From a virus: a stretch of 64,000 bases of DNA. The DNA lies in IMG/VR virus record IMGVR_UViG_3300028840_003168, one strand, 5' to 3'. Positions 37,706 through 62,278 of this stretch are shown piece by piece (positions within the stretch are counted from its first letter, which is position 1; every line of letters starts with the position of its first letter). The translations under genes and the position numbers were made by a program. The notes beneath the pieces are model-generated. The model ran no database searches and was not told the DNA's origin. It was given only the letters and a program-made list of their open reading frames with translations.

Positions 37706-39094
37706 ATGCCAGAAATGACTATGAGCTATGACAATGAGAAGAAGTTCGGTGAGCAGAAGGGTGGGGGTGGCAACTTCAACCCTGAGCTTTACCGGGCGTT
37801 GCCTGCCGGTGACGGGCAGACTGCCATCAACAAGATCCTGGTGCTGCTGTACGAGCCCTGGAGATGGAGTTTGTTCAACCCGACCCAGGAGATGGCCTCG
37901 AAGTACAACCTGGCCTTCAACAATGGAGGTTTGGTGAGCATTCCAGACAATCTGTGTACCTTCTTTTTCCAGGTACCTTCTCACGGTATTGATAACTTCA
38001 GGCGCCCGGACGGCTCCGAGGGGTTCACCTACGTCCTGTGTCCCAAGAAGTTCAACGCTTATTTGAAGGGTCACAACTACCAACCTCTCTTCCAGGATGA
38101 CACCTGCCCTTACTGCGACGAGGAGCAGCGGTACTGGGACATGTTTAACGACAGGTTCCTGGAGCTGGGGTTTGATCGAGAGGGCCGAAAGAAGATGAAG
38201 GATGGCCAGTACAGGGCCACGGTGGACGGTGATGAGATACTCAAGAAGGCCCGTTCATCGGCATTCGATCATCGTGTGTCGGATCGTTTTATTTTGAGCA
38301 TCTTCGATCACGACAAGTTTGTCGGTACTCGTAAAATGGATGAGGGCCAGACTGCTGTCGCGCACCAGTTGTGGATCGCTCCGAAGACCGTGTTTGAGGG
38401 GGTTCAACTCGTTTATGAGAGTGGCGCCAAGTTCTTCAATACCGCGAATGTAAAAGAGGTTGCGGTTCTGTCTCTGTCGAAGGACAATTCCAGAGGACGC
38501 AGGCGTTCCAAGTACTCGGTTGTCTATAGCGGCGAGACATATGACTATGGCGCCGAGTGGATGGCTTACCTGGACAACACGGAAACTCGGGTCGATCCGT
38601 CCAATTTCATTCATCTGGCGACTCCTGATGAGATGCGGTATTACCTGGGTGCCGCTTCTGCGGCTACACCACCTGCGGCATATCCTCCCGCAGTGGCTCC
38701 AGCAGCAGCTCCTCCCGCAGCTTCGCCTCCTCCTGCTGCTCCTCCCGCAGCTTCGCCTCCTCCTGCTGCTTCTCCTGCTGCTCCTCCTGCTGCTCCTCCT
38801 GCTGCTCCTCCCGCAGCGGCACCACCGGCAGCCGCACCACCTGCGGCGACTCCTCCTCCTGCTGCTGCACCGCCGTCTCCGGTACCGCCTCCAGCACCTG
38901 CACCGGCAGCAACTCCACAGGCACCCCCACCTGCTGCATCGCCAATGCCCAGTGCCCCGACAGGTACACCACCTGCGGCGACTCCACCGGCAGCAGCTCC
39001 TCCCGCGGCGACCCCTCCTGGTGGCGCCCCACCGGCAGCACCGGGCCATGTGGCCCCTCCCGGCTCCCCGGCCCCAGGTAAGAGGAACTGGTAG
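37706..39094 (+). CDS. Putative gp32-like ssDNA-binding protein with long Pro/Ala tail
   Basis: H...CP...CPYC metal motif and OB-like strands. Directly upstream of recA. C-terminal ~140 aa are PA repeats. Confidence 0.55.
   Translation: MPEMTMSYDNEKKFGEQKGGGGNFNPELYRALPAGDGQTAINKILVLLYEPWRWSLFNPTQEMASKYNLAFNNGGLVSIPDNLCTFFFQVPSHGIDNFRRPDGSEGFTYVLCPKKFNAYLKGHNYQPLFQDDTCPYCDEEQRYWDMFNDRFLELGFDREGRKKMKDGQYRATVDGDEILKKARSSAFDHRVSDRFILSIFDHDKFVGTRKMDEGQTAVAHQLWIAPKTVFEGVQLVYESGAKFFNTANVKEVAVLSLSKDNSRGRRRSKYSVVYSGETYDYGAEWMAYLDNTETRVDPSNFIHLATPDEMRYYLGAASAATPPAAYPPAVAPAAAPPAASPPPAAPPAASPPPAASPAAPPAAPPAAPPAAAPPAAAPPAATPPPAAAPPSPVPPPAPAPAATPQAPPPAASPMPSAPTGTPPAATPPAAAPPAATPPGGAPPAAPGHVAPPGSPAPGKRNW
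38650..39078 (+). repeat. Low-complexity Pro/Ala-coding repeats
   Basis: GCTCCTCCCGCAGCTTCGCCTCCTCCTGCT x2 (38708-38767), GCTCCTCCTGCT runs and degenerate copies. Confidence 0.9.
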
Positions 39095-44875: not shown

Positions 44876-45322
44876 ATGGGTAAGAAGGAAATCAGGTTTG
44901 TGGTCAAAGGTAAGCCATGGGTACAGAAGAACAACCTTCAGATCCGAAAGCGAAAGTTAAAGGGAAAATGGGTACCTTTCATCGACCATTCCGACAAGCT
45001 AAAGAGTATCCGGGACCAGATAGCCATCGAGATGTACTCGCAATATCACCGACAAGGCCTAACCAAACCTATCGATTACCCAATCGAAGTGGAGTTCATA
45101 TTCTACTGCAAGCGCCAGTGGGAACCCGACCTGGACAACCTGCCGCAGATATGGCTGGACGCGGCCCAGGGGGTCAAGGCCAAGGGCGGATTGAAAATAG
45201 CAACCATTCTGACCGACGACAAGTTGGTCAGGAAAGAAACCAGCGAGAAAATCATGGAAGGAGATCCCCGTTATGACGGAGAACCAAGAACCGAAATCAC
45301 CATCCGAAGATACACCTTCTGA
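44876..45322 (+). CDS. rusA: RusA-like Holliday junction resolvase
   Basis: FVVKGKP, PDLDNL, LDA, DDKLV and PRTEITI motifs. Confidence 0.85.
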   Translation: MGKKEIRFVVKGKPWVQKNNLQIRKRKLKGKWVPFIDHSDKLKSIRDQIAIEMYSQYHRQGLTKPIDYPIEVEFIFYCKRQWEPDLDNLPQIWLDAAQGVKAKGGLKIATILTDDKLVRKETSEKIMEGDPRYDGEPRTEITIRRYTF

Positions 45323-46589
45323 GGATGCAGAGGTATCCGAGGCCACCGGCACAACTGCATCGACGGTGGAGATACCTGAAGGAAGTTCAGGCGCGACTCC
45401 TGAACTCGTAGAGGTGCCCGAGGAGGAACGCCTTCCGCCCTTGGACCCTGGCGGGGAGCTTATCGTGGAGCCATTGGCCCAGCAGTACCGGGCGGTCATT
45501 AAGGACCTGGACTATGAGGTACTTCGTGAGATGTTCGACAGGTACTGGGATGCTCATGGTGAGGCCATTGCCCAGAACTCTCGGGTGAAGACCCGGAAGA
45601 AGAAGGGCGGTAAAGCGGGTAAGAACGCCAAAAAGGTACTTGAGAGCAGCATGGGTTTCAAGAAGCTCTACTCCGAGGTACTGGTCCAGCATGTGGTTTC
45701 CAAGATAGGGGATGTTCTGCATATCAGTGCCATGGAACTTCATGACTTTAAGGAGGGCGCCAAGCCGGTCATTATCGTGGCGTTCTATTACCTTCCGAAA
45801 CTGGAGGTTGACGAGATCAACCTCGATGTACCCTATCAGATGCGGGTGGACGAGGAGAAGGAGTACCGCGGATACTGCGAGTACACCTTACTTCAGAATC
45901 GAACCTTAGAGGATTTCGATGGGGATGAGATCGACCCGTACCACAATGTTCTGATGGATGTGACCGCCACCATGGACGGTCAACCTTTCGAGCAGGGTTC
46001 CTTGAGGATGCAGTGGATGGACTTAGACCGGCACCCTAACAAGACCTTAGTCAACGCCATCCTGGAACATAAGAAGGGTGATCTGTTCGAGACTGAGTGG
46101 CTCCACGAGGGTAAGGTTGTCTCTGCCCAGGTGAAGATACATGCCCTTCAGACGATTACCTACCCGGAGCTGGATGACGAGTTCGCCAAGGATTTGGAGT
46201 TCGACAGTCTGGATGCTTTCAAAGAGAAGTTTATCAATGATTATCGGGAGAACGTAGAACGCCAGGAAGAGGCCATGGCGATTGATGGTATCATCAGCAA
46301 CATTGTTGAGTCAGTGACTCTCCCTCCGCTTCCCGAGGAGTGGGTGGAGCATAAGTCGGCTGCCGCCGTGAATGAGCATATTCGGCGTGTAGGTAACAAA
46401 AAGAGGGCTCTCCTGTCCGTGGGTGCCAAGGACGAGAATCAGATGCAGGCCAGGTTCCGTGGTCAGGTTTACAGAACTCTTGTGCAGCAACTGGCGGTGA
46501 AGGCCTACGCTGAGAAGTATGACCTAGGCGATGAGGAAGAGGACATCAAGAAGCACATGAAAGAGCATGTTAACTGGATTAAGAAATGA
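45273..46589 (+). CDS. tig: Divergent trigger factor-like chaperone
   Basis: VLMDVTATMDGQPFEQG (FKBP start), KKGD, VKIHAL...PELDDEFAKDLEFDSLDAFKE and LPEEWVE. Length of 438 aa matches trigger factor. Confidence 0.8.
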   Translation: MTENQEPKSPSEDTPSEDAEVSEATGTTASTVEIPEGSSGATPELVEVPEEERLPPLDPGGELIVEPLAQQYRAVIKDLDYEVLREMFDRYWDAHGEAIAQNSRVKTRKKKGGKAGKNAKKVLESSMGFKKLYSEVLVQHVVSKIGDVLHISAMELHDFKEGAKPVIIVAFYYLPKLEVDEINLDVPYQMRVDEEKEYRGYCEYTLLQNRTLEDFDGDEIDPYHNVLMDVTATMDGQPFEQGSLRMQWMDLDRHPNKTLVNAILEHKKGDLFETEWLHEGKVVSAQVKIHALQTITYPELDDEFAKDLEFDSLDAFKEKFINDYRENVERQEEAMAIDGIISNIVESVTLPPLPEEWVEHKSAAAVNEHIRRVGNKKRALLSVGAKDENQMQARFRGQVYRTLVQQLAVKAYAEKYDLGDEEEDIKKHMKEHVNWIKK

Positions 46590-47620: not shown

Positions 47621-48472
47621 ATGAATAGAACAGCCAGAAAACAGAGACTTGCCCGTGCCAAACGCAGGGCTCATCATTTGTGGAAAGGGGCTGAGGAAGA
47701 CGGCAGGCCGGTTATTAAACGAGCGCGGCCTGAAGAGGAATTTGAAATGTCTATGGAAGCAGGACGTGGGAAGCGTGGTCGCAGGACTGCCGGTCGGAAC
47801 GAGGTGTCGGATCTGAATGCCGTATACTGGGGTCTGTTCGGGGCTTCCTTGGTGGACAGCAAAACCCTTTCGAGCGATATCCCTCGTTCGGTAGCGAATC
47901 AGTTCAATCGGACTGCTCGTCGGAATGCTGGCAACTTGCCGAGGGTTCTTGGATGGTCGAAGCTCGGTACCGCGTTCGCTACCGCGGACATTGCTGGTAT
48001 TCGTAAAGACATCTCTTTCGGGATGCAGACCAGGTTGGCATCCAAGTATTTCAACGTGCCCTTTCTCGCTGCCGCAGACATAGTCTACGACATGGAAGGT
48101 GTGGACCACCGTCAGGTCAAGCAGGCTATCGACATGATCCGTGAGGGCAGGCGCCGAGAGGCGGTTAACCGGTATGGCGACTTGGCCATGGAGCTTTCCC
48201 GCATCTACACCAAGTACAAGGATGCCAAGAACCGCAAACTGGCTATCGACCGATCCGCTAAGGAATATTGGGAGTCGTACCTGGGTCCTTTCGGCCAGGA
48301 GATGGTCCGCGAGATCAAGAAGCGTGTTCGTGCTGACCTCGCCAAGGCCTGGATGCGGAAGCACGGTGTTGACGATGCCGCTGCGGAGTACTGGGCCAGC
48401 TACTACGGGGAATACGGTGAGAAGTGGGTCTCCGTGGTCCCGAAGATGATCTCTCCCAAGAGTGACGATTAA
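47621..48472 (+). CDS. Hypothetical basic protein, candidate head-associated protein
   Basis: Many [RK]xA sites and two YWxSYxGxxG motifs. Confidence 0.6.
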   Translation: MNRTARKQRLARAKRRAHHLWKGAEEDGRPVIKRARPEEEFEMSMEAGRGKRGRRTAGRNEVSDLNAVYWGLFGASLVDSKTLSSDIPRSVANQFNRTARRNAGNLPRVLGWSKLGTAFATADIAGIRKDISFGMQTRLASKYFNVPFLAAADIVYDMEGVDHRQVKQAIDMIREGRRREAVNRYGDLAMELSRIYTKYKDAKNRKLAIDRSAKEYWESYLGPFGQEMVREIKKRVRADLAKAWMRKHGVDDAAAEYWASYYGEYGEKWVSVVPKMISPKSDD

Positions 48473-49434: not shown

Positions 49435-52400
49435 ATGCCTAAGAATAAATCTATGCGAAATGGTCGTTTCACTCCGAGTTCAGTGGTCAATCGTATCCTT
49501 GATGGCAAGACGGTGACCGCGAATGGTTGGTCCATCGGCATTGACAACAATGACAAGGTGGTGACCTGGCCACCCCGCGGCGATGGGTTCATGACCACCA
49601 TGGCTAACATCGACAAGGCGGCGAAGGACTTCTGCAAGCAGGCAGAGATGCCCATGCCCAAGCCCTACACAGAGCCTGGAGATGCTGTGAGTGTCCCGAA
49701 GAGTCCCGGCCCTGACAGCGATTCCAAGAACATCTCCACCCCGAAGAATTACGCGGACGGCTCCGAGAGTTCCATCAGCGTTCCCAAGAGTCCCGGCAAG
49801 GACACTGAGACCGATCACTTCACCAGTCCTGCGGTGAATGAGGGCGTAGCTCCGAAGGGACCAATGACCGACACCAGCCTGGGCAGCGATTCAGATTCCA
49901 GCGAGTCAGGTATGGGTAAGGATATCAAGCAGACTCCTGACGGGGTGAAGGATGCTCGTCGGAGGCAGGCTGCGTTCATGGAGCCTATGGTGTGGGAGAG
50001 TGACTTTTACGCTATCGATGGTGGTATGGGTACGACTTTTGTAGAAGTTGATGTTGTGGGTGATATCCCTGTTACCGATTTAGAAGCCTTTGGAGACTAC
50101 TATGAGGGCGGTTTTGAGGGGATTGAGGAAGTTGAAAAGGTGCATGGGTGGGGATCTCAGATGTCGGCTCCTGGGTATATGGATCAGACTGATCTTAGTG
50201 TTTATGATACCAAGGAAGAAGCTATTGAGGCTCTGTTTGAGTACTACATGACAGATATGGGTGAGTTGGATGAGCAGTACGAAGAGTATCGTGACGAGTA
50301 CGAGAAGTATTACCTCAAAGGCGAGAAAGAAGCCCGTCGCAAACCCGCCCGAAGACGCCCTGCTCGACGGAGGGCTCAGGGAGATGATTGGTCCGACGAA
50401 CAGCACCAGGTTTGGGATGCGGTCGAACACGCGCTAGAGCAGTTGAACGCAGCTGAGTATGATCGTCAACGGGGTAAAGGTAAGAAGCCCTTGAAACAGT
50501 TCCATCCGAGTCCTGAAGGTGAGTTTTTGGAGGATCTTCGTCAGCAGTACATGCGAGGTGAGGTAGACGCTGAGACCGTAATGGCTACTTTGGCTAACCC
50601 TGAGCTTTGGGAAGCTCGATTTGGTGCGGCTCAAAAAAGAGCAAAAATCATCGACACCTTCTCCCAGGAACCTGATGGGAAAGAAATCTACGCCAACCTC
50701 ACGATGGCCCGACCGTCCGAAGCACTCCTGAAAGACATCGCGGACCCAGACAAATGGCTGGCCACCCAGACCATTCGTGCCATGGAGGAAGATGTAGAAG
50801 CTGGGTGTGGTGGCGGTCCTGGCAAGAAACGCAAAAAAGAGGAAGCCGAAGCTGAGATGGAAGCTGGCTGTGGTCCTCCTGAGAAGAAATCCTTTCGTAG
50901 GAAAGGTCAGTCCGATGATTACGATGTGTACCTGAAAGATGAGATTCAGGGTGAGTGGCTCTCGGGAGACAAGGACAAGGCTCTGGAGATGCTTGCGGGA
51001 GCCGATGATTGGATGACTCTTTTTAACGCGATACACCAGGGCTTGAAGTTCGCTACCCCGCAGGAGGGTACTGACTGGCACTCTGCCGTGCGCCAGTACA
51101 TGGAGTCTATCGGTAGGGACATGACTGCTCGACGCAGACCGCGCCGGTCGGTTCGCAAGAGGGGTCAGGATGAAGAAAACGGTGAGTATCCGATAGACCT
51201 GTATCTGGTGGTGTCTGACATTACAGAGTACATCAGTGGTCAACCTGAAGGAATAAATGTCACGGGTGCCTATGAGGTGCATTTAGTGGACGCTGCCGAA
51301 CAGACCCATCTCGCGGAAATGACCCCTTCATACTACGGACGTTTTGTCGGGTTACAGGCAACCGTTGATGACTATGGTGCGCTTTCGGAGGAACAGGCAG
51401 AGGCTCTGAACGACTATGAAATTGAGTTGTCAAACTATACTGAGTCTGGTGACTATTTCCGTGAGGCGGATATCAAGTCTGGTGTTCCTTACGACAAGGC
51501 GACGGTCTCTGGCAAAGAGGAACGTGACGAGTACATAGAGGATACGGTCGAATACCTGCAAGGTAACACTGCTGATTGGGAAAACGCCATTGATGAGGTT
51601 GCTCGTAAGAAGACTTCCAAAACCCGCCGATCCTACGAAGAACCCGGCGCAGATCGCAACCTGGACGTACCCGATGAGTTCATTGCGATGGAACCCCCCA
51701 AGACTCCCAAGGACAAGGAAGCCCGTCGCCGCAGACGCTCCCAGGATGAGGGCGGTGTCTACACCTTCGACCAGCTCGACGAGAAGGCCAAGGAAAAAGC
51801 CCTTTACTGGTTTTTGGAAGATGCTGATGTCTTTGAGTGGGAGGCTGAATACGTCATCGACGACGCCAAGGAAAATGCCCCTGCCGGTTTTCAGATAGAT
51901 GAGATTTTCTACAGCGGTTTTTCGTCGCAAGGCGATGGTGCTTCCTGGACAGGTTGGGTGGATCTCGCAGAGTGGGCCAAGGCCACTAATCAGGACGAGG
52001 GCATTATCAGACTCGTTGAGAGTGAGGAGATTGAGTCCTCTGCCAAAGTTACACAGGACGGGCGTTACTCTCATGAAAACACTATGGATGTCGAGGTTGT
52101 CATAGACCGTTATGAAGCTGATGAGGCTTCTGGCATGAGCGGAGACGAAATCGAGGCCAATGCCGACCAGTTACAGGAGGCTGTGCTGGATGCAGTAAAG
52201 GACTATGCCAGAGAGATCTATAGCAGGTTGGAGCAGGGCTACGACCATGTCTATAGCGAAGAGAACCTGAGCTACCTGGCTGAGGCGAATGAATGGGTGT
52301 TCAACAAGGACGGTACCTTTGCTTGGGACAAGAGCTACGATGACCTGATCACCCATCCTGATCAGATGAAGCTTCCTGGGGTAAAGGGCAAACGCAGACG

Positions 52401-54108
52401 TTCCTTTCGACGAAATGCTGGCCTATATGAAGACATTATGGATGCCGGTATTGAGACCGACAACCATGAGTCGGACCTCTATTTTCCTGTAACTCCTGAA
52501 TCAACTGAAATCCTGAAGAAGTACCCAATGAATGAAAAAAACTCTCAGACGTTCATAGATAATATCAGTGGTGATGAATGGTATGATGTTCCCTTTGCGT
52601 TTCCAGGAGTTAGGGGTAATAGAAAACGCCAAGCAGGCCCCAAACTCCGCGAGAAGTGGAATGACGGTGGTGATTACTCCAGGGATCTGGAAGCCGAGTC
52701 TGCCGAGGAGCTCTACAACCTGACCATGGCCTTTGGCGGTGAAGAGGTTGACTGGCCCGATACTACGGCTCAACCTGCCATGCCCGAGCAGGCACCTCCT
52801 GCTGAGGCACCTCCGGTCGGTGGCGTTGCCGCCGAAGAGGATATGTCCGAGGTAATGGCCAGCAGCAAGCTTGCCGAGTTCTCAGACATTGAGGCCGTGG
52901 ACGATGAGGCCAAGAGCTACTACGAGAGTTACTTTGGCGAGTACGGCAAACAACTGGTCAAGGACGATCCTCCTGGAAAGAAAGACAAGAAGGCCCCCAA
53001 GGACGGCAAACCTGAACTGGGCAAGCCAGAGAATAAGAAGGATAAGAAAAAGTCGAGGCTGGTTCGTCATAGGAAACCTGCTCGTCGGCACCCTCGTCGG
53101 AGGGCTCAGGACAAGAAGAACGGGCCTCGTTTTTTCGAGGAAGAAGAGGATCTATACCGCTGCCCCAATTGTGGGCAGGAGGAATGGACTACGGAGAGTT
53201 TTTTGGACAAGGGTCCGAAATTTGAAAAGTGTCCTAATTGCAGTGAGGGGATGGAGAGAGTAACCAGGGGACGGAGAACCCCTCGTCGGAGAGGCCAAGC
53301 CGCCCCCGCGGCACCGGCCCCCAAACAACCCGCAGCTCCTGCGGCACCCGCTGCACCAGCAGCGCCTGCGGCGGCACCTGCCGCCCCCGCGCCAGCACCT
53401 GCACAACCTGCTGACCCCGGTGCAGGAACGCCCCCCACGGGCAAGCCAGCAGCTCCTGGTGAGAAACTGGCACCCGGAGCAGGCGATGCCGGTATCCAGG
53501 CACTCGGATGGACTCCTGAGGACATCCAGACGATGACCGATGAGCAGAAGCAGGGCCTCCTGCAACTCAAGCTCATGAAACCCGGCGCACAGATACCTCA
53601 ACCTCCGGGAACACAACCTCCTGGGAAGCCCGAAGGTAAGCCTGGGGTACCGCCGAAAGCACCCGCGGGGCCTGCGGGTCCAGCAGGACCTCCCGGACCT
53701 GGAGAAGCGGCTCCTGGCGCACAGCCAGCGCAACCTGCACCGCAGGAGAAAGTTCAACCTGTAGTGGGTGCGATCAGCAAGATGCTGGCCCAGGTGGACC
53801 CCACGGCGGCTCCCGTGGACCCTACCATGGCCGGGGCACCCGCAGAGGCAGCCCCGGCACCCGCAGAGGCAGCCCCGGCACCCGCAGTAGGCGGTGAGCC
53901 GATTCTCTCTCCTGAGGAACAAGCATTTGCTATCCTTAGGGAGGTTCAATCGCAGGACATGAGCGCCATCGATCCGAAGCAATTGGTATCCGCTAAGAGC
54001 CAGGAGCTGATCAGGCGGCTTCAGACTGAAATAGGTATGACCGTTCAAGAGGCCGAGAAACTGTTCGGCGTATCAAAGAGCAAGGGCTTCGCAAGCCTGT
54101 TTTCATAG
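49435..54108 (+). CDS. Modular acidic polyprotein-like protein A with Arg-rich linkers
   Basis: About 1557 aa from ATG 49435 (ORF open from 49396). About 11 Arg-rich linkers, SVPKSPG repeats, CPNC..CPNC ribbon and Pro/Ala-rich C-terminus. Confidence 0.8.
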   Translation: MPKNKSMRNGRFTPSSVVNRILDGKTVTANGWSIGIDNNDKVVTWPPRGDGFMTTMANIDKAAKDFCKQAEMPMPKPYTEPGDAVSVPKSPGPDSDSKNISTPKNYADGSESSISVPKSPGKDTETDHFTSPAVNEGVAPKGPMTDTSLGSDSDSSESGMGKDIKQTPDGVKDARRRQAAFMEPMVWESDFYAIDGGMGTTFVEVDVVGDIPVTDLEAFGDYYEGGFEGIEEVEKVHGWGSQMSAPGYMDQTDLSVYDTKEEAIEALFEYYMTDMGELDEQYEEYRDEYEKYYLKGEKEARRKPARRRPARRRAQGDDWSDEQHQVWDAVEHALEQLNAAEYDRQRGKGKKPLKQFHPSPEGEFLEDLRQQYMRGEVDAETVMATLANPELWEARFGAAQKRAKIIDTFSQEPDGKEIYANLTMARPSEALLKDIADPDKWLATQTIRAMEEDVEAGCGGGPGKKRKKEEAEAEMEAGCGPPEKKSFRRKGQSDDYDVYLKDEIQGEWLSGDKDKALEMLAGADDWMTLFNAIHQGLKFATPQEGTDWHSAVRQYMESIGRDMTARRRPRRSVRKRGQDEENGEYPIDLYLVVSDITEYISGQPEGINVTGAYEVHLVDAAEQTHLAEMTPSYYGRFVGLQATVDDYGALSEEQAEALNDYEIELSNYTESGDYFREADIKSGVPYDKATVSGKEERDEYIEDTVEYLQGNTADWENAIDEVARKKTSKTRRSYEEPGADRNLDVPDEFIAMEPPKTPKDKEARRRRRSQDEGGVYTFDQLDEKAKEKALYWFLEDADVFEWEAEYVIDDAKENAPAGFQIDEIFYSGFSSQGDGASWTGWVDLAEWAKATNQDEGIIRLVESEEIESSAKVTQDGRYSHENTMDVEVVIDRYEADEASGMSGDEIEANADQLQEAVLDAVKDYAREIYSRLEQGYDHVYSEENLSYLAEANEWVFNKDGTFAWDKSYDDLITHPDQMKLPGVKGKRRRSFRRNAGLYEDIMDAGIETDNHESDLYFPVTPESTEILKKYPMNEKNSQTFIDNISGDEWYDVPFAFPGVRGNRKRQAGPKLREKWNDGGDYSRDLEAESAEELYNLTMAFGGEEVDWPDTTAQPAMPEQAPPAEAPPVGGVAAEEDMSEVMASSKLAEFSDIEAVDDEAKSYYESYFGEYGKQLVKDDPPGKKDKKAPKDGKPELGKPENKKDKKKSRLVRHRKPARRHPRRRAQDKKNGPRFFEEEEDLYRCPNCGQEEWTTESFLDKGPKFEKCPNCSEGMERVTRGRRTPRRRGQAAPAAPAPKQPAAPAAPAAPAAPAAAPAAPAPAPAQPADPGAGTPPTGKPAAPGEKLAPGAGDAGIQALGWTPEDIQTMTDEQKQGLLQLKLMKPGAQIPQPPGTQPPGKPEGKPGVPPKAPAGPAGPAGPPGPGEAAPGAQPAQPAPQEKVQPVVGAISKMLAQVDPTAAPVDPTMAGAPAEAAPAPAEAAPAPAVGGEPILSPEEQAFAILREVQSQDMSAIDPKQLVSAKSQELIRRLQTEIGMTVQEAEKLFGVSKSKGFASLFS
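53835..53887 (+). repeat. 21-bp tandem repeat x2.5
   Basis: Unit GGCACCCGCAGAGGCAGCCCC encodes APAEAAP. Confidence 0.9.
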
Positions 54109-54123
54109 ACGAGGAGAATTTCT

Positions 54124-54564
54124 ATGTCAGAAAAATATGTAGCGTATAACCTAACAAAAGGTATCGTGAGCTTCGGGCTGGCGGTAGCCGTGGCACCAGA
54201 GGAGCTTGAAGGTCTTCCCTCGCACCGCAGGCGCAGAACTCTCAAGAGCAACATCATTCAGATCGTGATCCCTTACGGAGAATCGATGGATTTGGTGGAG
54301 AAGACTGGGTTGTCGGCAGACCAGATAAAATCATCTGCCGAGCTGATAAAGCTCATTTCTCGGAATGCTGTTCGGGTTGAGGTCAGCAATGTGAAAGAAG
54401 ATCCGAAGCCCGAGGAAGCTCCCAGGCCGCAGACCAGGACTCTCGATGAGCCGGTGGATGAGAAGGTCCAGGAGGACGCCCCTGAAGAGGAGGCTGATTC
54501 TGAGGGCAAGAAGGCTTCCAAGAAGTCGGACAAGAAGTCCAAGAAGTCTAAAAAGAAGGGTTAA
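54124..54564 (+). CDS. Hypothetical protein with charged low-complexity tail
   Basis: GAGGAG RBS, C-terminal KKSDKKSKKSKKKG. Confidence 0.6.
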   Translation: MSEKYVAYNLTKGIVSFGLAVAVAPEELEGLPSHRRRRTLKSNIIQIVIPYGESMDLVEKTGLSADQIKSSAELIKLISRNAVRVEVSNVKEDPKPEEAPRPQTRTLDEPVDEKVQEDAPEEEADSEGKKASKKSDKKSKKSKKKG

Positions 54565-54570
54565 GCCGCG

Positions 54571-55134
54571 GTGCTAGTAAAATCCCATAGCCTCAGGTTC
54601 TTGGAGGACTATGGGATAGTACGCGGTAAGACTGTTCACCTGTACGAAAATGGCGACGTGACTGTAAAGCAGTGTTCGCCGGTTTCACCCGTTCTACGGG
54701 TCAATGCTTTGTGGCTGAATAGGGACTTGAAAGTGAAGTGTGACGTGGCAGACACCCCGGCGAAAAAGAGACTCGGACTTCAGGATCATTCCGAGCTTTC
54801 AGAGAGCCGTGGTATGTACTTCCCGTATGTGAAGTACTCCAACGTGACCTTCCACCAAGGGTCCGTACCTTTCAGCTTAGACCTTCTTTTTTTAAGAGAT
54901 AATGTGGTGGTGGATGTTGAGGAGCTCACCAAGGTTGGTTCAAGCGACCGGTGGAGCTGCTCGGGGTGTGATGGGGTACTTGAAGTCAATGGTGGCTGGT
55001 GCGCCGACAAACAGGTGTGCCTGGGGGATAAGATAGCGTTGTTCGCGCTTACCCAGCGTGACCTCGATGAGCTGGAAGCTGAACGTAAGGCTGACAGTTT
55101 TTTGTCGATGGTTGCTGATAGGATAGTGGTGTAG
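54571..55134 (+). CDS. DUF192-family protein
   Basis: VADTPAKKRLGL, GMYF, VPFSLDLLFL and VLEVNGGW...GDKI motifs. Confidence 0.8.
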   Translation: MLVKSHSLRFLEDYGIVRGKTVHLYENGDVTVKQCSPVSPVLRVNALWLNRDLKVKCDVADTPAKKRLGLQDHSELSESRGMYFPYVKYSNVTFHQGSVPFSLDLLFLRDNVVVDVEELTKVGSSDRWSCSGCDGVLEVNGGWCADKQVCLGDKIALFALTQRDLDELEAERKADSFLSMVADRIVV

Positions 55135-55156
55135 GTTCAAAAAGGAAGATATTGAG

Positions 55157-58100
55157 ATGAACATCAACGAACTGAGAAATAAGGGTCACGTCAAGAACAG
55201 CCCGATCATTAAAGGTCTCAAGCGGCAGCAGCGTCTGGTGCAGGCTAATTTGAATCGTCATGCCCAGCAGCATTCCTTGACGGATATGTTCTCTGCTTTG
55301 AAACCCGGTGCTCGGGAGGATGACCGGCAGCTTCATTCACTGGTAAAGACCGCTGTGAGTGAGACGAACGATCTGCTCAACCAGTTCTACTTTCCTGTGG
55401 CGCCTCAACTGGCCTTCACCAAGGTTAAGAATGTCAAGTACGCCAAGCACGATGACTCCGAGGTGGTGTCCGGTTGCATCATGCTCAATTGCAAGATCGC
55501 TTCGTTGAGTGGTGTGGACGTGGACGCGGACATCCCGGTTCATGTTGAGCGTGGAGAGCTTGTACTGCCTTCAGTGCTGTACCAGGATGGTCGGGAGCAT
55601 GTGATTGCTCAGTCCACTATCGACATGATTACCCAGCGTCATACCTCGTATGCGCTGCCCGAGCTGCGCCAGCAGGGGGAACCTCCCTATGACCTGGAGG
55701 AAGCCAAGATGGCCACCGAGTCCAGGAACGCCATCGGGTACCAGCCCAGGAAACCGATATACCTGGACGAGGTAACACAGAATAACGATTTCAGGGACAA
55801 ACGACCCAGGATCGCCGCCAAAGGCGCTCCACTCGGATTCAAGATAGTCAAGGAGGAGATGGACAAGGCCGAGGCGGATGGTCTCGATACCTTCCCCAGA
55901 CCTATCGACTACATCCTGGCCACCTATGTCAGGCCGATCATGGGTGAGGTGTACATGAGCGCATGGGCGCCGGCCCTCACCAACGGCGGGTACGCGATCA
56001 ACCCCTACGGAGAGAACCGCGGCAGGCCTAAGACGGGGAGTCGTCGGAAAGTTGCGGGTCTGGGAGACAAATTCATCGACAATTTCGGTGACGTTAATTG
56101 GTTGGAGCATGGCGGCAAGCTGCTTTTTGAAGGGGAGTCCGGCCCTTACGTGGTAGTGGTTGATACCTGGCGATTGGATGACGGTCAAGCCGAAGGTGAG
56201 TCCGATCCTGATATGATTTGGGATGTCTATCGTGTGGATATTGAGGACGGTTTCAAGGAAGACGAGAACGGCGATGTCATAGGATCTAATGGTTATACTG
56301 AGTGGTGGTCTAAGCGGGATGAGATGGAAGGCATCGCGTCTACGGTGGGTCAGGATGTTGAGGAGTTCATAGATGACATTACTTCGGAAGACTTGAAAGA
56401 TCGTTTTTTTGCGTATGATACGATTGCAGCTACCTGGGGATGGGAAAATCTCGAAGGAGGGCCTGCTGACCAGTACGACATAGACGACCTTGTTCGGCTC
56501 TTTGAGGGTACTGAGTTAGAGGAAACTGTAAAAGATGTTGCCGAATTTCGGGATTTGGGGCTGGCGCAGAGAGACGAAGAAGCCGAAGATGAGTTCAGTG
56601 ATTATGCCGACGAGGACGACCCGGATGAGGGTTACGATTTCAAGGAAGCCCGTCGCCGCCGAGCTGGAGAACCTTTTGGCACAGACGTAGATTTCTTTGA
56701 ACAGTGGTTTCACGGTGCGGGTTTCTATAGCTTTGGAGACATGATAGAGGGTTACTTCGATTTGAATGACGATGACCTAGTCACTGTTGCTGCTGCGACT
56801 GACGGTGGCAGCATGTCTCCCCCTTATGCCCTTTTGATAGAGCAAGGCGGCAACCCTGATGTGATGATGGACGCTGTTGTAGAGATGCTTGAAGAGAATT
56901 TGCGGCATTTCCGAAGTGATGACATCGATAAGGCTTATCAAGAAGAATTGAAAGAGCGCGGCATTAGGGACTTCGATGACTATGCTGATGACGATGACAT
57001 GGATGAGGAGCGGTGGGACATCCAGTCTGAGATAGACCAACAGTATGCGGGTGCCGAAGGTTTAGAGCTTTTCAAAATCCCACCTCAAGATCTGTTGCGT
57101 ATTATCAAAGGTCATCGGAACTCCGAAGAGTTGCTGGAGCGTATCGGGGTTGAGGGGCTGGACTATGAAAGCGCCGAAGAAGACTTCAGTGAACGAGAAG
57201 CTCGTCGGTATGAAGCGGGATATGGTTCTGAAACTGGTGATTGGGGTGAGCCTCACAAGTTGCATGGTGTAACCTATCTTGAACTCCCAGACGGACGCTG
57301 GGAGGTTCCTGGCAACCAGGGCATGCCTGCTGAATTTTTTGACAGCGAGAGTGACGCTCGGGACTACATTGCCTCGTACAAGGACAATGGCCGAGAAGCC
57401 CGTCGCCGTGCCCAGGTAGAGGTAGACGCCGAAGAAGCCGAGATGATCATCATGAACGATGAGGGCATGTACAACGAGGCCATGTTCATCGTTCGGCAAT
57501 GGAACGGCACCAACATAAAAGACATCACCGCAGACTTCATGGAGTACTTTGGAGATCTCAGCGAGACCATGGATGTGGGTGACTGGGAGGATGTTGCCCG
57601 AGAGATTATTGAGGGGATGGAAGATGACGAAGAACATCCTCCAGGGATGGAACCTGATTCCACCTGGGAGAGCAAGTGGGAGTTGATGCTCAAGGAGGGT
57701 GTGAGTGGTTCTGTGGATATTGAGGTAGAGTACGATTACATGGTGTTCGAGGACGGAATCACGCAGTACTATCCTGATGCGGATTTGGTTGAGAGTGGGG
57801 ACAACTATGATAACCAGATGCTCAAGGCAATAGAAGCCAAGTACCCGGATGCTTATGTGTCGGTGCAGCCTGGAGCGCGTGACGACATTACTGTGACCGT
57901 GAATGTCGATGAGCAAGGAGATGAGTCTGATCAGTTGGAAGATAAGAGACTTACCTGGATGCTGGCCAAAGAGAAAGAGATTCAGTCTGACGTTAGAGAC
58001 ATGATGGAAGAGGGTGTTGAGTCCTGGGACTGGCTTGTGGAAGCTGGTGAGGACGACAATGGCCGGGAGGCCCGTCGCCGCAAGGCCCAACAGGTTAGAC

Positions 58101-60538
58101 TGGATGCGGGTCAGTTCGGGTGGGACTATCTTTTGGTAAATGAAGAGACTGGTGAGGACATCCTTATCCAGACAGATTGGGACTATCCTGGCGTGGCTTC
58201 TTATTTGGGGTGGCAGCATATTTGTCCTGATGGGGAAGCCCATGGTGAGACTGACGGGACGGTTGACTGTCCAGTGTGTGGAGAATCCTCAAGTGACATG
58301 ATTGGGGAAGCAGGAGAGTTCCTGGACGATCACATTGGGGATACCTTTGAAGACCCGGGATATTTCAGCGAGTCCAGAGGGGCCAAACGGAGATGGTTTC
58401 GGCAAGGTCAATCAATGGAGTTAGAGGATCTCCCTGCGTGGCAGACTACACTCCCTGACGAGATCAAGCAGCTATGGTTTGATGGAAATAGAGAAGAAGC
58501 TCTTGACCAGTTGTTCCAGACCGATGGCGGCTATGCTATCTATCAGCAGATACAGGAGGACTGGGGTGATGCGGAGTTTGCGGCTGCTGTGAGTGACCGT
58601 CATTCAAAGAATATGGAAGACCTCAAGCGTAGCCGTAGTTCTGCTCGACGGAGGCGTCTTCGGCAAGGCTCCCGAAGGGCCAATGCCACCTCGTCGATCA
58701 TAAGCAAAATCGACAACGACCCGCGCTCGTACATCGGCGCGAAGAAGCTCATCGACCAGACTGACGACAAGCTGAAATTAGCCGAGAAACTCGAAGCCTA
58801 CTTCACCAAGAGGGATGGAATCTCCACGGACGGCGTGAACTGGGGCAAGGTCGTGGATGCAGTCCATGCAAAGTTCGGTGAGGAAGCCGTGAAGGACAAT
58901 GATGGGAAAGAAGCCCGTCGCAGACGTGCTTTTCACATTCCGATAGAGGAAGTGGAGTTTGATCTTGAGATTATGGAAGACGATGTTCCTGTTCGCGGGA
59001 ATGCCATAGTCTCTGGTGATGATGATCTTGATAAGGAAGTTGAGGATGAGATTCTTGAGCGTCTTGAGACCGGCGATTTGTGGGCCTGGTGTACCGTTAA
59101 GGTCACTGCCGAGTGGGAAGCTGAGGATGGCCGTATTTTTAGCGGCGAGGACTATTTGGGGGGTTGCTCTTACAGGGATGAGGAAGACTTCACGGAGCCT
59201 GGGGGCTACTACGACGATATGAAGGAGCAGGCCTATGCAGAGCTTCTTGCAGAGGCTTCAGGTGCAGATCCGCAACCGATGGACCCTCGCCAGCAGAAGC
59301 TTCCCGGAGTTGATGCCCGTCGCCAAGCCAAGAGCATAAAAGAAAAGCTGGAAGAGTTCCAAGGTGTGGAGATAATCTTCGAGGATACTGGAGATGAGGA
59401 TACCGAATATATTGTCAAAGCACTTCAGGACGCAGGGGTTGATGCCAGTCTGGGTGACTACACTGAAGTGGATGGTGATAGTCTTGCCAATAGTGTGTAC
59501 GCTGAAAACATCATCAAAGATATAGAAGCAATCGTTTTCGGTGATGATGACGAGGAAGAGGAACCTGAGCGTGGAGAGCGTTGGGAAGATCTGAGTGACG
59601 ATGAGAAACGCTGGTACCACGAGGAACAACGTATCATAGACAGAAACAGAGGTCTGGAATCTCGCCGCCATGCCCAGGATGATATGATTCCTCAAGTATG
59701 GGAGGGTTCTTTTTACGCTTTGGATTTTCCTTCCGGGACCGAGTTTATTGATGCCAGCTGGGTGGATGAGTCTCTTTCCGAATTGAAAAATGCTAATTTT
59801 GCTAAGGGAGGTGTCCCTGAAGATGTGCGGGAGGTCCAGGGCTGGGGTGCTCAGTTGGTTTCTCCTGATGGCGTTGAGTACACAGATTTAGAAGTGTTTG
59901 ACACCGAGGATGAAGCTCGGGCGTCTTTGAAGAGGGGAAGAGGGGCTCGTCGCCAGGCCCAGACCTACGAATGGACCAACGACATCACCCGGCAGGCCTA
60001 TGAGGTTCTGAACCGCGACAAGGCCACTGTAGCCGCCGTGGAGGAACTCATGGCTGCTCATGCCGAGGACGCCGACAACACCATCCTAGTAGGCAACCTG
60101 GCACCTCTCCTTGGAAGTGAGATGGATTTCACCGAGGGCAGCTCTCACGAGATTGTCTGGGAAGAGGTCATTGAGAACTTCCAAGGCGGCACCCCCGAGA
60201 CCATGTACGATGAGAGCTACCAGATGGCCGCTTCCCGGCAGGCCATGCCCATGGAAGAGGACTTGGAGATGGACGGACCCCCGATGGAACTCGAAGAGTT
60301 CATCGATGAGGAACCGGCCCCCAAAGAGCCGCGCAAGTGGCCCGGTACCAAAGCCCCCATGGAGAACGGTGATAAAGCGAAGTTCAATGGGCATGACGGT
60401 CCCATCCGCGGGAAGATTGTGGAGATCGATGAGGCGGGAGATACCCTCATCCTGGAGAGCAAGGGGATGCAGTACCGGGTAGTGGTGGATGACGTGGAGG
60501 CTCTCCCGAGTACGATGAACAAGATGTGGAAAGAGTAG
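55157..60538 (+). CDS. Modular acidic polyprotein-like protein B with Arg-rich linkers
   Basis: 1793 aa. About 12 linkers (EARRRRAG, EARRRAQ, EARRRKAQ, DARRQA, ESRRHAQ, GARRQAQ and others). SH3-like C-terminus. Confidence 0.85.
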   Translation: MNINELRNKGHVKNSPIIKGLKRQQRLVQANLNRHAQQHSLTDMFSALKPGAREDDRQLHSLVKTAVSETNDLLNQFYFPVAPQLAFTKVKNVKYAKHDDSEVVSGCIMLNCKIASLSGVDVDADIPVHVERGELVLPSVLYQDGREHVIAQSTIDMITQRHTSYALPELRQQGEPPYDLEEAKMATESRNAIGYQPRKPIYLDEVTQNNDFRDKRPRIAAKGAPLGFKIVKEEMDKAEADGLDTFPRPIDYILATYVRPIMGEVYMSAWAPALTNGGYAINPYGENRGRPKTGSRRKVAGLGDKFIDNFGDVNWLEHGGKLLFEGESGPYVVVVDTWRLDDGQAEGESDPDMIWDVYRVDIEDGFKEDENGDVIGSNGYTEWWSKRDEMEGIASTVGQDVEEFIDDITSEDLKDRFFAYDTIAATWGWENLEGGPADQYDIDDLVRLFEGTELEETVKDVAEFRDLGLAQRDEEAEDEFSDYADEDDPDEGYDFKEARRRRAGEPFGTDVDFFEQWFHGAGFYSFGDMIEGYFDLNDDDLVTVAAATDGGSMSPPYALLIEQGGNPDVMMDAVVEMLEENLRHFRSDDIDKAYQEELKERGIRDFDDYADDDDMDEERWDIQSEIDQQYAGAEGLELFKIPPQDLLRIIKGHRNSEELLERIGVEGLDYESAEEDFSEREARRYEAGYGSETGDWGEPHKLHGVTYLELPDGRWEVPGNQGMPAEFFDSESDARDYIASYKDNGREARRRAQVEVDAEEAEMIIMNDEGMYNEAMFIVRQWNGTNIKDITADFMEYFGDLSETMDVGDWEDVAREIIEGMEDDEEHPPGMEPDSTWESKWELMLKEGVSGSVDIEVEYDYMVFEDGITQYYPDADLVESGDNYDNQMLKAIEAKYPDAYVSVQPGARDDITVTVNVDEQGDESDQLEDKRLTWMLAKEKEIQSDVRDMMEEGVESWDWLVEAGEDDNGREARRRKAQQVRLDAGQFGWDYLLVNEETGEDILIQTDWDYPGVASYLGWQHICPDGEAHGETDGTVDCPVCGESSSDMIGEAGEFLDDHIGDTFEDPGYFSESRGAKRRWFRQGQSMELEDLPAWQTTLPDEIKQLWFDGNREEALDQLFQTDGGYAIYQQIQEDWGDAEFAAAVSDRHSKNMEDLKRSRSSARRRRLRQGSRRANATSSIISKIDNDPRSYIGAKKLIDQTDDKLKLAEKLEAYFTKRDGISTDGVNWGKVVDAVHAKFGEEAVKDNDGKEARRRRAFHIPIEEVEFDLEIMEDDVPVRGNAIVSGDDDLDKEVEDEILERLETGDLWAWCTVKVTAEWEAEDGRIFSGEDYLGGCSYRDEEDFTEPGGYYDDMKEQAYAELLAEASGADPQPMDPRQQKLPGVDARRQAKSIKEKLEEFQGVEIIFEDTGDEDTEYIVKALQDAGVDASLGDYTEVDGDSLANSVYAENIIKDIEAIVFGDDDEEEEPERGERWEDLSDDEKRWYHEEQRIIDRNRGLESRRHAQDDMIPQVWEGSFYALDFPSGTEFIDASWVDESLSELKNANFAKGGVPEDVREVQGWGAQLVSPDGVEYTDLEVFDTEDEARASLKRGRGARRQAQTYEWTNDITRQAYEVLNRDKATVAAVEELMAAHAEDADNTILVGNLAPLLGSEMDFTEGSSHEIVWEEVIENFQGGTPETMYDESYQMAASRQAMPMEEDLEMDGPPMELEEFIDEEPAPKEPRKWPGTKAPMENGDKAKFNGHDGPIRGKIVEIDEAGDTLILESKGMQYRVVVDDVEALPSTMNKMWKE

Positions 60539-60541
60539 ACC

Positions 60542-62278
60542 ATGGACGAAGGATACACATTCACGCTCCAGGGTTACGACGTAGTTGTGAACGAGACCGA
60601 GAATTCCGAGGTTTTCCATGTTCAGATTCATGAAGGTGGGGCGCCTGTCTATGAGACCGATGTCCCCATCACTTTGGAGGACGAGGAAATTATCCTTGAT
60701 GAGGTAATCGATCACGCGGCCAAGGCTGCGATTGATATGTACGAGTCGGAGAAAGGTACCTTGGGACAAGGTGCTGAACCGCTAGAAATAGAGGCCAAAA
60801 TGAAAAGAGGACAAGCGATAGCTTCCCCAGGATGCTACTGGATGGAGTCGTGCAACTACACCGAATGGCTCATGCAGCTCAAAGGCACCCCCTACGAGCA
60901 GCAGGCCATCGTTCTGCTTGAGGAACTTATCAACCTCCAGGCCCCAGGCGCGACCAACACCGAGCTGGATGCTTTGTATAAGCAGAAAAGCCAGGTGGAG
61001 CATGAGCTGGATCGGCTGAACCTGGAGAGACTCAAGACTGCCGATCCTCCCAAACAGATCGTTGTCATTGAGGCCAACCGTACCCGGCGTGTGAGCTTCT
61101 CCGGGTTAGACTGGGTCGAAGGTTTCCTGGATGCGTTCAAAGACCACAGGCTGGAGCCTCAGGCCATTCTCAAGGTCAAGGAACTGATCGACCTGGAAGC
61201 GGCCATCGACGTGGCCAGCGCCACCGAGAGTGGTACCTGGGACCAGCAGGACGAGGTTCGCCGGCAGATGGACGCACTGCTCATCGAGAAGACCAAGTCC
61301 GAGGTGGACCAGAAGCTCCCCCAGAGCGGCATCGAGGTGGCCCCTGAGATGGCCAACGACATCGCTGACCTGATGGAAGGCGTCTCGATGGACGCTCCCC
61401 TGGAGCCGATGGTGGCTCGTCGCCGGCAGGTTGCTTACGAGGAGTACTACCCCGGTGAACACGGGGAAGGTGCGACAAGCAACTCGATTCTGGATGCCAT
61501 GGCCCGTGCCGTGTATGTGACCAGCTGGTCTAGTGAGTGGGAGTACCTGTGGGAAGACTATGAGGACGAGGTTATCGAAGAAGAAGCTGAAGAACTCGGA
61601 ATCGAAGTTCCCAATTTCATGGGTGCTGAACTCATGTCGATTGCACCGCCCACTGAGAAAGAGGCTCATGACCTTGCCAAGAAAGTGTATGACGAAATCG
61701 AGCGCGATAACAATGTGAACCTCGAAGACTTCATCCCGCCAGGAGAGGATGAGGACTTTGATCAGTTTGAGTTTGGTCACTATCTCATGATGGAGGTGCT
61801 GGGTTCTGGTGTTGCCTGGAGCGATGACCACGAAGACCACGGGTTGAAGCTCCCGTGGGAGGAGGGGGTCCAAGTTGAGGGCCTGACTCCTTTGGTGAAT
61901 GTCTTGTACGAGAAATATGGGGAGGGTCGCGAGGCTTCCAGAAAAGGCTGCCGCAGACCTGTTAGAAAGAGAGCCCAGGATGACAAGAAAGACCCTTTCG
62001 AGGTTGAGGAATTTGGTACGGAACTGGGGAAGGGTCACGGGGACCTGGACCCCGCGGAGGTTCCCGAAGCGACCCGAGTTCCTTTCGGCCCAGGCAACTA
62101 CATAAAGCTCAAGAACGAGGTCAAGGTTCCGTTGTGGGGAGGAGCTTCTCGTACCATACCCAAAGGTACGAAAGGGTTTGTGGACTCTTTGTATGACGGC
62201 CACGGCGACCGTTTCTATATCAGAACTGAAGAAGGCGCTCTGTTCAGCACCGACCGAGATAATTTGGCAAAAGCTTAG
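60542..62278 (+). CDS. Modular acidic polyprotein-like protein C
   Basis: 578 aa. Linkers EAKMKRGQ, EANRTRRVS, VARRRQVA and EASRKGCRRPVRKRAQ. Internal helical repeat and SH3-like C-terminus. Confidence 0.8.
   Translation: MDEGYTFTLQGYDVVVNETENSEVFHVQIHEGGAPVYETDVPITLEDEEIILDEVIDHAAKAAIDMYESEKGTLGQGAEPLEIEAKMKRGQAIASPGCYWMESCNYTEWLMQLKGTPYEQQAIVLLEELINLQAPGATNTELDALYKQKSQVEHELDRLNLERLKTADPPKQIVVIEANRTRRVSFSGLDWVEGFLDAFKDHRLEPQAILKVKELIDLEAAIDVASATESGTWDQQDEVRRQMDALLIEKTKSEVDQKLPQSGIEVAPEMANDIADLMEGVSMDAPLEPMVARRRQVAYEEYYPGEHGEGATSNSILDAMARAVYVTSWSSEWEYLWEDYEDEVIEEEAEELGIEVPNFMGAELMSIAPPTEKEAHDLAKKVYDEIERDNNVNLEDFIPPGEDEDFDQFEFGHYLMMEVLGSGVAWSDDHEDHGLKLPWEEGVQVEGLTPLVNVLYEKYGEGREASRKGCRRPVRKRAQDDKKDPFEVEEFGTELGKGHGDLDPAEVPEATRVPFGPGNYIKLKNEVKVPLWGGASRTIPKGTKGFVDSLYDGHGDRFYIRTEEGALFSTDRDNLAKA

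Follow-up and report, generated by a model that had tools for sequence, protein, structure and literature searches.

The region studied here lies in a 64,000-nt stretch of DNA (the window) from an uncultured phage of ~158 kb and contains, amid replication genes, three giant open reading frames, A, B and C, that encode strings of unrelated small proteins joined by a single type of arginine-rich linker (Table 1). A carries ~10 such modules, B ~13 and C ~5. B opens with a conserved N-terminal domain (residues 1-292), continues with ~11 modules, the majority of them lineage-specific, and closes with a conserved C-terminal part. The reading frame of A is open from a TTG at 49396, but ATG 49435 is its likely start because it is supported by a ribosome-binding site (AAAGGAAG) and because the alignment of relatives begins at residue 14. 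Sequence comparisons indicate that each module is a small acidic protein that is found elsewhere as a separate gene. No mutual similarity was found among modules, with the exception of one old paralogous pair, A186-280 and B1501-1591 (38% identity).

Table 1. Polyprotein genes, linker sequences and the inserted cassette, with positions in the 64,000-nt window.
Feature	Position	Strand	Remarks
Polyprotein A	49435..54108	+	~10 acidic modules with Arg-rich linkers between them
Exact GAAGCCCGTCGC (EARR)	50329..50340	+	Linker between A modules 195-310 and 336-496
Second linker DNA type, GCT CGA CGG AGG GCT CAG G (ARRRAQ)	50362..50380	+	
Exact GAAGCCCGTCGC	51718..51729	+	Linker between A modules 597-773 and 785-996
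DUF192 gene	54571..55134	+	Between A-type and B-type polyproteins in every fetched related locus that covers the interval
Polyprotein B	55157..60538	+	1793 aa
Exact GAAGCCCGTCGC	56645..56656	+	Orthologous junction; L004 reads GREAKTAQ there
26-nt linker unit (DNGREARRR)	57383..57408	+	Includes exact 12-mer at 57395; 24/26 match to 58055-58080
26-nt linker unit	58055..58080	+	One-mismatch 12-mer GAGGCCCGTCGC at 58067 (GAG); upstream of module B979-1073
Exact GAAGCCCGTCGC (DNDGKEARRRR)	58910..58921	+	Upstream of module B1259-1387
One-mismatch 12-mer GATGCCCGTCGC (DARR, GAT)	59312..59323	+	In frame
Polyprotein C	60542..62278	+	578 aa; one inserted cassette between conserved N- and C-terminal parts
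GCT CGT CGC variant (VARRRQ)	61415..61423	+	Left breakpoint of cassette relative to L015 between GCT and CGT
In-frame cassette, 549 nt (183 codons)	61417..61965	+	Module plus one extra linker

None of A, B or C matched Pfam-A at E <= 0.01, and the sole match in any library was that of A module 785-996 to the PHROG family phrog_5162 (function not known), which is a stand-alone gene in rV5-like coliphages. No peptidase domain was seen inside A, B or C. For the DUF192 protein, which may be a processing enzyme, the analysis yielded just a family match and an uncharacterised PDB entry, and a look at the literature gave nothing on its function. A model of the N-terminal domain of B (pLDDT 82) had no Foldseek match in the PDB, and the best VIA-align score, for residues 54-161 against cystatin/NTF2-like folds, was a Z of 7.7, a value that common arrangements also reach. 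One unnamed BFVD match was obtained for this domain, Atlas feature searches scored below 0.8, and its alignment contains no His, Cys, Ser or acidic residue that is invariant and might point to a protease.

In this phage the linker peptide reads G-R-E-A-R-R-x-A-Q, and the family-wide consensus is G-[RK]-E-A-[RSK]-[RK]-x(0-2)-[AG]-Q. The peptide is short and probably disordered, linker stretches in the N-domain model having pLDDT values below 50. We infer that it most likely marks the sites at which the polyprotein is cleaved into its components. Module borders agree with gene starts, in that stand-alone homologs of B979-1073 start 1-3 residues past the A-Q of the linker. The linker is primarily a conserved peptide motif, so protein function also helps to account for its occurrence between modules.

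A, B and C are members of a large, widespread, undescribed and unnamed family of polyproteins from large uncultured phages, comprising 642 representative clusters, in which the N-terminal domain of B stands at the head of proteins 293 to 1662 aa long. When the region was compared with 50,697 phage records by megablast and by tblastn, no match emerged; a first scan of IMG/VR with B was likewise empty, and word-based searches with B recovered B alone or one weak match, the signal probably being swamped by acidic low-complexity words.

Gene order in nine related loci is A, small gene, DUF192, small gene, B, C, and module content varies. Architectures differ in all nine of these relatives, modules having been gained, lost, reordered and moved between polyproteins. 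A modules 1010-1072 and 1081-1218, for example, are in reversed order in L006, B module 1259-1387 sits in polyprotein A2 of L005, and A module 597-773 is a stand-alone gene in L010. The ends of internal homology lie <= 8 aa from a linker in 31 of 62 cases, compared with 11.0 +/- 4.1 expected (0 of 5000 shifts). A preliminary description of this DNA had proposed that modules are shuffled in frame at the linkers, and named a fixed module order with breakpoints elsewhere as evidence to the contrary; module order is not fixed, and breakpoints are enriched at linkers.

The linkers are alike at the DNA level as well. The 12-mer GAAGCCCGTCGC occurs in five exact and two one-mismatch copies, all on the + strand and all in frame as E/D-A-R-R, and these copies are confined to the linkers of two of the three giant ORFs (counts cover the 64-kb window and 6.5 kb of L001). 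The seven copies lie exactly where the preliminary description had placed them, as do the two 26-nt units that agree at 24 positions and the copies of CGGAGGGCTCAGG at 50368 and 53098. CGGAGGGCTCAGG belongs to a second linker DNA type, of which GCTCGACGGAGG is seen again at 58643. The 9-mer GCCCGTCGC has seven copies, exclusively at these linker sites, and occurs on neither strand elsewhere in the 64 kb. Variants of the form GCTCGTCG were found at the positions already listed (49954, 53080, 57200, 59945 and 61415) and at a sixth, 47915, that was absent from that list. Identity is sharply bounded in that 9-12 nt are identical and the codons directly outside vary; at the third and fourth positions of linker Arg runs the codon varies freely, with AGA and AGG among those used.

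This identity is more than codon habit. The seven matches to the 12-mer compare with 0.16 expected, and no shuffle got to seven. The EARR peptides (n = 7) are encoded by GAA GCC CGT CGC in five cases, as had been noted, by GAG GCC CGT CGC in one and by GAA GCT CGT CGG in one. Codon usage in 48 other genes is 0.31 for GAA, 0.29 for GCC, 0.20 for CGT, 0.11 for CGC and 0.28 for AGG. Outside the polyproteins in the window, A-R is mainly GCC-AGG/AGA and R-R mainly CGC-AGG. None of the five ARR sites there uses GCC CGT CGC, so this is not the dominant trio for ARR; had it been, the proposal would have been refuted by the preliminary description's own criterion. Synonymous-codon shuffling within the three genes yielded seven identical ARR 9-mers or five identical EARR 12-mers in 0 of 20,000 trials, which upholds the earlier claim that the linker is conserved as DNA. 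For repeated 4-peptides containing RR in the same genes, 14 site pairs were identical in DNA versus 0.25 expected; Arg-free repeated 4-peptides, which served as an internal control, showed no such excess (5 versus 3.98 expected).

Relatives carry linker DNA versions of their own. In L013, RRAQ is encoded by AGAAGGGCTCAA three times and EARR by GAAGCTCGAAGA twice, and one pair of linkers is identical over 34 nt with unrelated modules alongside. L014 has AAGCGTCGAAAAGCC twice. Pooled relatives show 9 identical pairs versus 0.55 expected (0 of 2000). That each genome has its own version favours within-genome copying or recombination over a nucleotide signal kept family-wide. The presence of the 12-mer at an ancestral, orthologous junction (56645) indicates that homogenisation is needed beyond insertion alone, and the dissimilarity of the flanking modules (except for the 38% pair) indicates that linkers were not copied along with modules. 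The relatives that cover the seven 12-mer copies have 35-50% protein identity and are too distant for nucleotide-level breakpoints.

One border in C could be resolved at the nucleotide level. The 549-nt cassette is absent from L015, L004 and L006, and in L005 the site is occupied by another insert. In L015, the closest relative (75% nucleotide identity), the site reads GTG GCA AGG AGT GCC CAG (VARSAQ), and in the window it reads GTG GCT|CGT CGC CGG CAG ... AGA AAG|AGA GCC CAG, with 549 nt between the bars. The 5' breakpoint thus lies inside the GCT|CGTCGC variant at 61415, and together with the linker-enriched breakpoints this supports the proposed in-frame gain and loss of modules at junction repeats. 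The two linkers that flank the cassette are not identical to each other, which counts against the explanation that we prefer.

That explanation, to which we assign a probability of about 0.62, is that the DNA identity of linkers is the footprint of repeated in-frame copy-and-paste, the linker being also the probable cutting site. Recombination with breakpoints in linker codons would let modules enter, leave and change place; each inserted cassette would bring or duplicate a linker; and exchange between linkers would keep their DNA alike (concerted evolution). The phage's own short-homology recombination would then most likely cross over within the identical stretches of 9-34 nt. The linker repeat thus marks sites of in-frame module swapping and may also guide it, and we infer that the repeats probably act as recombination substrates and not as scars alone. 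Further points count against this explanation. Stretches of 9-12 nt offer very little length for homologous recombination. In the four contigs with the locus, which are 99.9-100% identical, no recombinant junction, excised circle or polymorphic module arrangement was seen, and their single indel is a change in tandem-repeat copy number outside the linkers.

Alternatively, the linker word might be kept by codon or nucleotide selection, module shuffling at linkers being a separate fact. Such selection might favour Arg runs that the main CGN-reading tRNA decodes efficiently, might disfavour AGG/AGA runs because they resemble ribosome-binding sites, or might preserve a short word in DNA or RNA (CGWCG, a palindrome in frame) that some factor recognises. 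The first two linker Arg codons are CGT/CGA-CGN in 19 of 32 cases in the window versus 10 of 57 in other genes, and the same tendency appears in L005 (14/32 versus 7/27) and L010 (6/13 versus 2/7) despite GC contents of 46 to 63%, a hint that part of the family is under some constraint at the codon level. In-frame R-R accounts for 21 of the 30 CGWCG sites in the polyproteins, and the sharp ends of the identity at 9-12 nt would also fit a selected short word. However, the CGT/CGA-CGN habit is missing in L011 (7/22 versus 6/21), L012 (3/14 versus 7/34) and L013 (0/19), and in relatives only it reaches a Fisher p of 0.025; a family-wide codon signal, promising with three relatives, became weaker after four were added. 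The linkers of L013 use AGA AGG and yet are identical to one another, and GAA, a minor Glu codon (0.31), is nevertheless fixed in 5 of 7 copies in the window. Also against selection, there is freedom at the third and fourth Arg codons, and GCT CGA CGG AGG is found in other linkers of the same genes. As for an RNA element, linkers have no shared fold (z from -1.4 to +1.7) and match no Rfam family, and CGWCG is not enriched in the whole window (66 observed, ~91 expected). We consider selection on the word an unlikely explanation of the identity.

Recent tandem duplication of whole module-plus-linker units, with modules diverging later, could account for the one paralogous module pair and for the close match of the linkers at 57383 and 58055. 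Yet the remaining modules are mutually dissimilar, many having distinct homologs elsewhere, and the linkers beside the paralogous pair lack the 12-mer. Moreover, divergence sufficient to erase module similarity would erase the synonymous sites of linkers too, and this origin seems very improbable. Chance or ordinary codon bias, under which the peptide itself is conserved and nothing more, has a negligible probability and is refuted for the readable 64 kb by the expectation of 0.16 versus 7 matches, the failure of all 20,000 shuffles and the limitation of the excess to RR peptides.

Beyond repeated copy-and-paste at linkers, a more specific and rather speculative possibility is that the linker has a dual use, the 9-34-nt coding repeat being both a processing site and a preferred crossover, possibly with a dedicated enzyme that reads in-frame CGWCG. 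Each polyprotein ORF would in that case behave as an array of cassettes. Anti-host modules would be exchanged among co-infecting phages and from one polyprotein to another, and would switch between the polyprotein form and a stand-alone, leader-tagged format.

Phage accessory proteins, probably anti-host ones, are replaced very rapidly, and it is only partly understood how they come to be newly combined with no gene being broken. In the polyprotein family described here a short translated repeat shows where exchange begins and ends, with one border resolved to the nucleotide, which provides a testable model of in-frame module exchange in which the linker is both processing site and crossover site. 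The locus also offers ~25 autonomous small proteins of no known function, with borders defined by linkers, that can be expressed individually.

Several known systems resemble these polyproteins in part. Internal proteins of T4 carry a capsid targeting sequence that is cut by the gp21 prohead protease, and head proteins of phiKZ/SPN3US-like giant phages are cleaved multiple times (PMC9026906, PMC5694885). As in those systems, a short peptide is common to small unrelated proteins and one motif recurs many times; their motifs are Glu-terminal (L/I-x-E; A/S/G-x-E), whereas the putative cleavage motif here is R-R-x-[AG]-Q and the linkers contain no Glu-terminal motif. Polyvalent proteins of phages and conjugative elements are very long, comprise many unrelated domains, are thought to be processed and have variable architectures (Iyer, Burroughs, Anand, de Souza, Aravind 2017, PMC5512222). 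Many unrelated domains per polypeptide and an architecture that varies among relatives are shared features, but the signature domains of polyvalent proteins (zincin-like MPTase, ArdC-N, LPD families and others), as modelled in Pfam, were not detected here, and that article describes no recurrent linker motif and does not contain the word 'linker'.

At the DNA level, the PeSL cassettes of T4-type phages are intergenic repeats of promoter and stem-loop beside small, non-essential, fast-changing genes (Arbiol et al. 2010, PMC2839356; Comeau et al. 2014, PMC4122927). Recombination between PeSL copies accounts for insertions, deletions and replacements between close relatives, and mini-circles have been shown (PMC2839356; PMC4122927). 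Insertions and deletions are likewise bounded by a repeat here (the 549-nt cassette relative to L015 and the linker-enriched breakpoints), but the linkers are translated, in frame, far shorter and without a consistent hairpin. In the gp38 adhesins/tail fibres of T-even phages, short conserved glycine-rich motifs separate variable segments within one ORF; they are proposed to permit in-frame exchange of these segments, and for gp38 crosses have shown it (Trojet et al. 2011, PMC3157838, citing Tetart et al. 1998). Conserved motif-coding DNA alternates with variable segments within a single ORF here too. The motifs of gp38, however, are the structural core of one folded domain with one function, in which the swapped parts are loops, whereas in A, B and C a flexible linker connects autonomous proteins that are unrelated to one another, and the units gained, lost or rearranged are entire modules.

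The Arg-rich linkers of polyproteins A, B and C share DNA as well as peptide sequence. The preliminary description had listed copies of a 12-mer in these linkers and proposed in-frame cassette shuffling there; on recheck, every one of its coordinates for the linker repeats was correct. GAAGCCCGTCGC is present in five exact copies and two with one mismatch, on the + strand only and all in frame as E/D-A-R-R, and its core GCCCGTCGC is found in seven copies and nowhere else in the 64 kb when both strands are searched. That GCC-CGT-CGC might simply be the dominant spelling of ARR, an objection raised in the same description, is contradicted by the ARR sites outside the three ORFs, none of which (0/5) is written in this way. 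In the 48 other genes of the window, A-R is mainly GCC AGG or GCC AGA and R-R mainly CGC AGG, with CGC used least of all Arg codons (0.11) and GAA the minor Glu codon (0.31). When synonymous codons were shuffled inside genes A, B and C, the observed identity was reached in 0 of 20,000 shuffles. Repeated RR-containing 4-peptides in these genes gave 14 site pairs with shared DNA (0.25 expected), and repeated 4-peptides without Arg, an internal control, gave 5 (3.98 expected). The B linkers at 57383, 58055 and 58895 all have GACAATG...GARGCCCGTCGC and differ at third positions only; they look like recent copies beginning to drift.

Polyproteins and other features of the window
Feature	Position	Strand	Description
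462-aa protein	37706-39094		Pro/Ala low-complexity stretch
438-aa protein	45273-46589		trigger-factor C-terminal domain (PF05698, E 4e-9); 3 kb upstream of polyproteins
283-aa protein	47621-48472		basic, 20% Lys+Arg; five Arg-rich clusters
Polyprotein A	49435-54108	+	acidic, Arg-rich linkers
AAPAPAE 21-nt tandem repeat	53830-53892		Pro/Ala-rich tail of A
146-aa gene and DUF192 gene	54124-55134		between A-type and B-type polyproteins
Polyprotein B	55157-60538	+	acidic, Arg-rich linkers
B head domain	55157-56035		B residues 1-292
Polyprotein C	60542-62278	+	acidic, Arg-rich linkers
Cassette in C	61417-61965		549 nt, 183 codons

The sole copy of GCTCGTCG outside the polyproteins lies in the gene for the 283-aa protein, whose TARRNAG cluster is written GCT CGT CGG, as in linker variants. 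The only other 12-mer present five times in the window, CTCCTCCTGCTG (38697-38893), comes from the low-complexity stretch of the 462-aa protein. Within several linkers (50365-50380, 53095-53110, 58646-58654 and 49957-49965) CGG AGG contains GGAGG, the core of the phage's ribosome-binding sites, and the linker sequence CGGAGGGCT is similar to GGAGGGCTAGA-ATG, the site of a downstream gene at L001:21281 on a contig with a near-identical copy of the locus; an in-frame start at usable distance follows only at 49957 (ATG 12 nt downstream). A search of the linker sites for an RNA family or common fold found none.

All long ORFs of the window are on the + strand, and its genes include a DnaB-like helicase, a family A DNA polymerase, an SbcC-like protein, an exonuclease and RusA. 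This gene content and the ~158-kb size of the locus-bearing contigs identify the window as the replication/early part of a large uncultured phage, for which no close relative was found among cultured phages. The trigger-factor domain of the 438-aa protein is chaperone-like and unusual in phage.

Asp and Glu make up 19-23% of A, B and C, which Arg-rich stretches divide into ~28 modules, mutually dissimilar except for one pair with 38% identity. A Pfam search of the three had no match, and PHROGs gave one family without known function, a separate ~210-aa protein in rV5-like coliphages. An exhaustive HMMER search with B:1-1200 reached 642 representative clusters. The head domain of B, conserved in more than 600 representative clusters and heading proteins of 293-1662 aa, has no Pfam or PHROG family; in a structure model its residues 54-161 are at best cystatin/NTF2-like (Z 7.7), and many relatives carry extra modules between its two halves (residue ~205-220). 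For module B979-1073, stand-alone homologs (~90-110 aa) number in the dozens and start 1-3 residues beyond the end of the linker A-Q in B, indicating that the polyproteins are fusions of genes separate elsewhere and that the linker lies outside the folded modules. The low-confidence parts of the N-domain model of B are linker stretches.

We compared nine related loci (L004, L005, L006, L009, L010 and L011-L014; GC 36-63%). Block order is kept (A-type polyprotein(s), small gene, DUF192, small gene, B-type, C-type), but the proteins vary greatly in length, B ranging from 293 to 1793 aa. The 146-aa and DUF192 (PF02643) genes are present wherever the interval is covered, and the DUF192 protein may, speculatively, be a partner that processes or chaperones the polyproteins. 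A further gene, of ~100-127 aa, stands immediately before B in most relatives and is missing from the window. NUMOD / I-HmuI-like nicking homing endonuclease genes, with weak or faint Pfam hits, lie upstream of A-type polyprotein genes at L005:1677-2408 and L013:2224-3345, with one or two small genes between.

Core modules are positionally stable and accessory modules vary among loci. As the preliminary description proposed, alignment of orthologous genes revealed moved and reordered modules with breakpoints clustered at linkers: the order of A1010-1072 and A1081-1218 is reversed in L006, B1259-1387 has its counterpart in L005 polyprotein A2, A597-773 is encoded in L010 by a gene of its own downstream of B, and A195-310 is missing from L004 and in a different protein in L005. 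Homology ends within 8 residues of a linker at 31 of 62 internal ends, against 11.0 ± 4.1 expected from circularly shifted linkers (0/5000).

One such difference could be resolved to the nucleotide. The closest relative found, L015 (75% DNA identity), is collinear with the window from the end of B through C, save for a cassette that it lacks. Its junction reads GTG GCA AGG AGT GCC CAG (V-A-R-S-A-Q) and that of the window GTG GCT | CGT CGC CGG CAG ... module ... AGA AAG | AGA GCC CAG, indicating that the cassette lies inside a linker, in frame, with one linker gained. The GCTCGTCGC variant previously listed at 61415 contains its left border. The cassette is also missing from the more distant L004 and L006, and L005 has another insert at the same place; the simplest reading of these alignments is that the site would be an insertion hot spot.

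Codon or nucleotide selection keeping linker DNA alike at first looked possible, since Arg runs in linkers open with the codon pair CGT/CGA-CGN in the window phage, L005 and L010, but this signal faded with four more relatives (none in L011, L012 and L013; relatives-only p = 0.025). Other genomes repeat their own spellings: in L013, three RRAQ sites read AGAAGGGCTCAA and two EARR sites GAAGCTCGAAGA, and one pair of linkers shares 34 identical nt ahead of unrelated modules; L014 has AAGCGTCGAAAAGCC twice. Pooled, the relatives have 9 identical-linker pairs versus 0.55 expected (0/2000). Such genome-specific spellings of one peptide motif fit within-genome copy-and-paste or gene conversion, not a shared nucleotide signal.

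Linkers would thus be copied and pasted, or gene-converted, inside one genome. The 12-mer at 56645 sits on a junction orthologous in L004, so some homogenisation of old linkers is needed beyond the insertion of new ones. The 9-12 nt of identity may guide recombination or merely be its remnant. No present-day rearrangement was seen among four contigs (99.9-100% identical), whose only indel is the copy number of the tandem repeat in the tail of A (three copies in the window, two in L001 and L002), the sole difference from these two over 18.8 kb.

At the peptide level, alignment with relatives gives roughly G-[RK]-E-A-[RSK]-[RK]-x(0-2)-[AG]-Q across the family, low-GC relatives using Lys and Thr (GREAKTAQ versus KEARRRRAG; SREASDRKQAG versus GNRKRQAG), and most members have a comparable [KR]-H-A-Q just after the N-terminal helices of the B domain. 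The motif is most naturally read as a putative processing site; no protease was found. Two adjacent small genes ~5.9-6.5 kb past the window end (L001:24707-25382) begin with the leader MKLKGLTDKS, their first 29 nt identical and the remaining proteins unrelated, which is a second case in this genome of a short peptide tag kept as DNA on differing payloads.

In-frame exchange via conserved motif-coding DNA is known from the gp38 adhesins of T-even phages (PMC3157838), and shuffling of small repeat-bounded genes, with circles, from PeSLs (PMC2839356). Polyvalent proteins are also giant multi-domain phage proteins (PMC5512222), but that work describes no recurrent linker such as that of A, B and C, in which, moreover, polyvalent signature domains were not found. 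The polyprotein family, its Arg-rich linker and the trace that exchange has left in the DNA of a translated linker appear to be undescribed.
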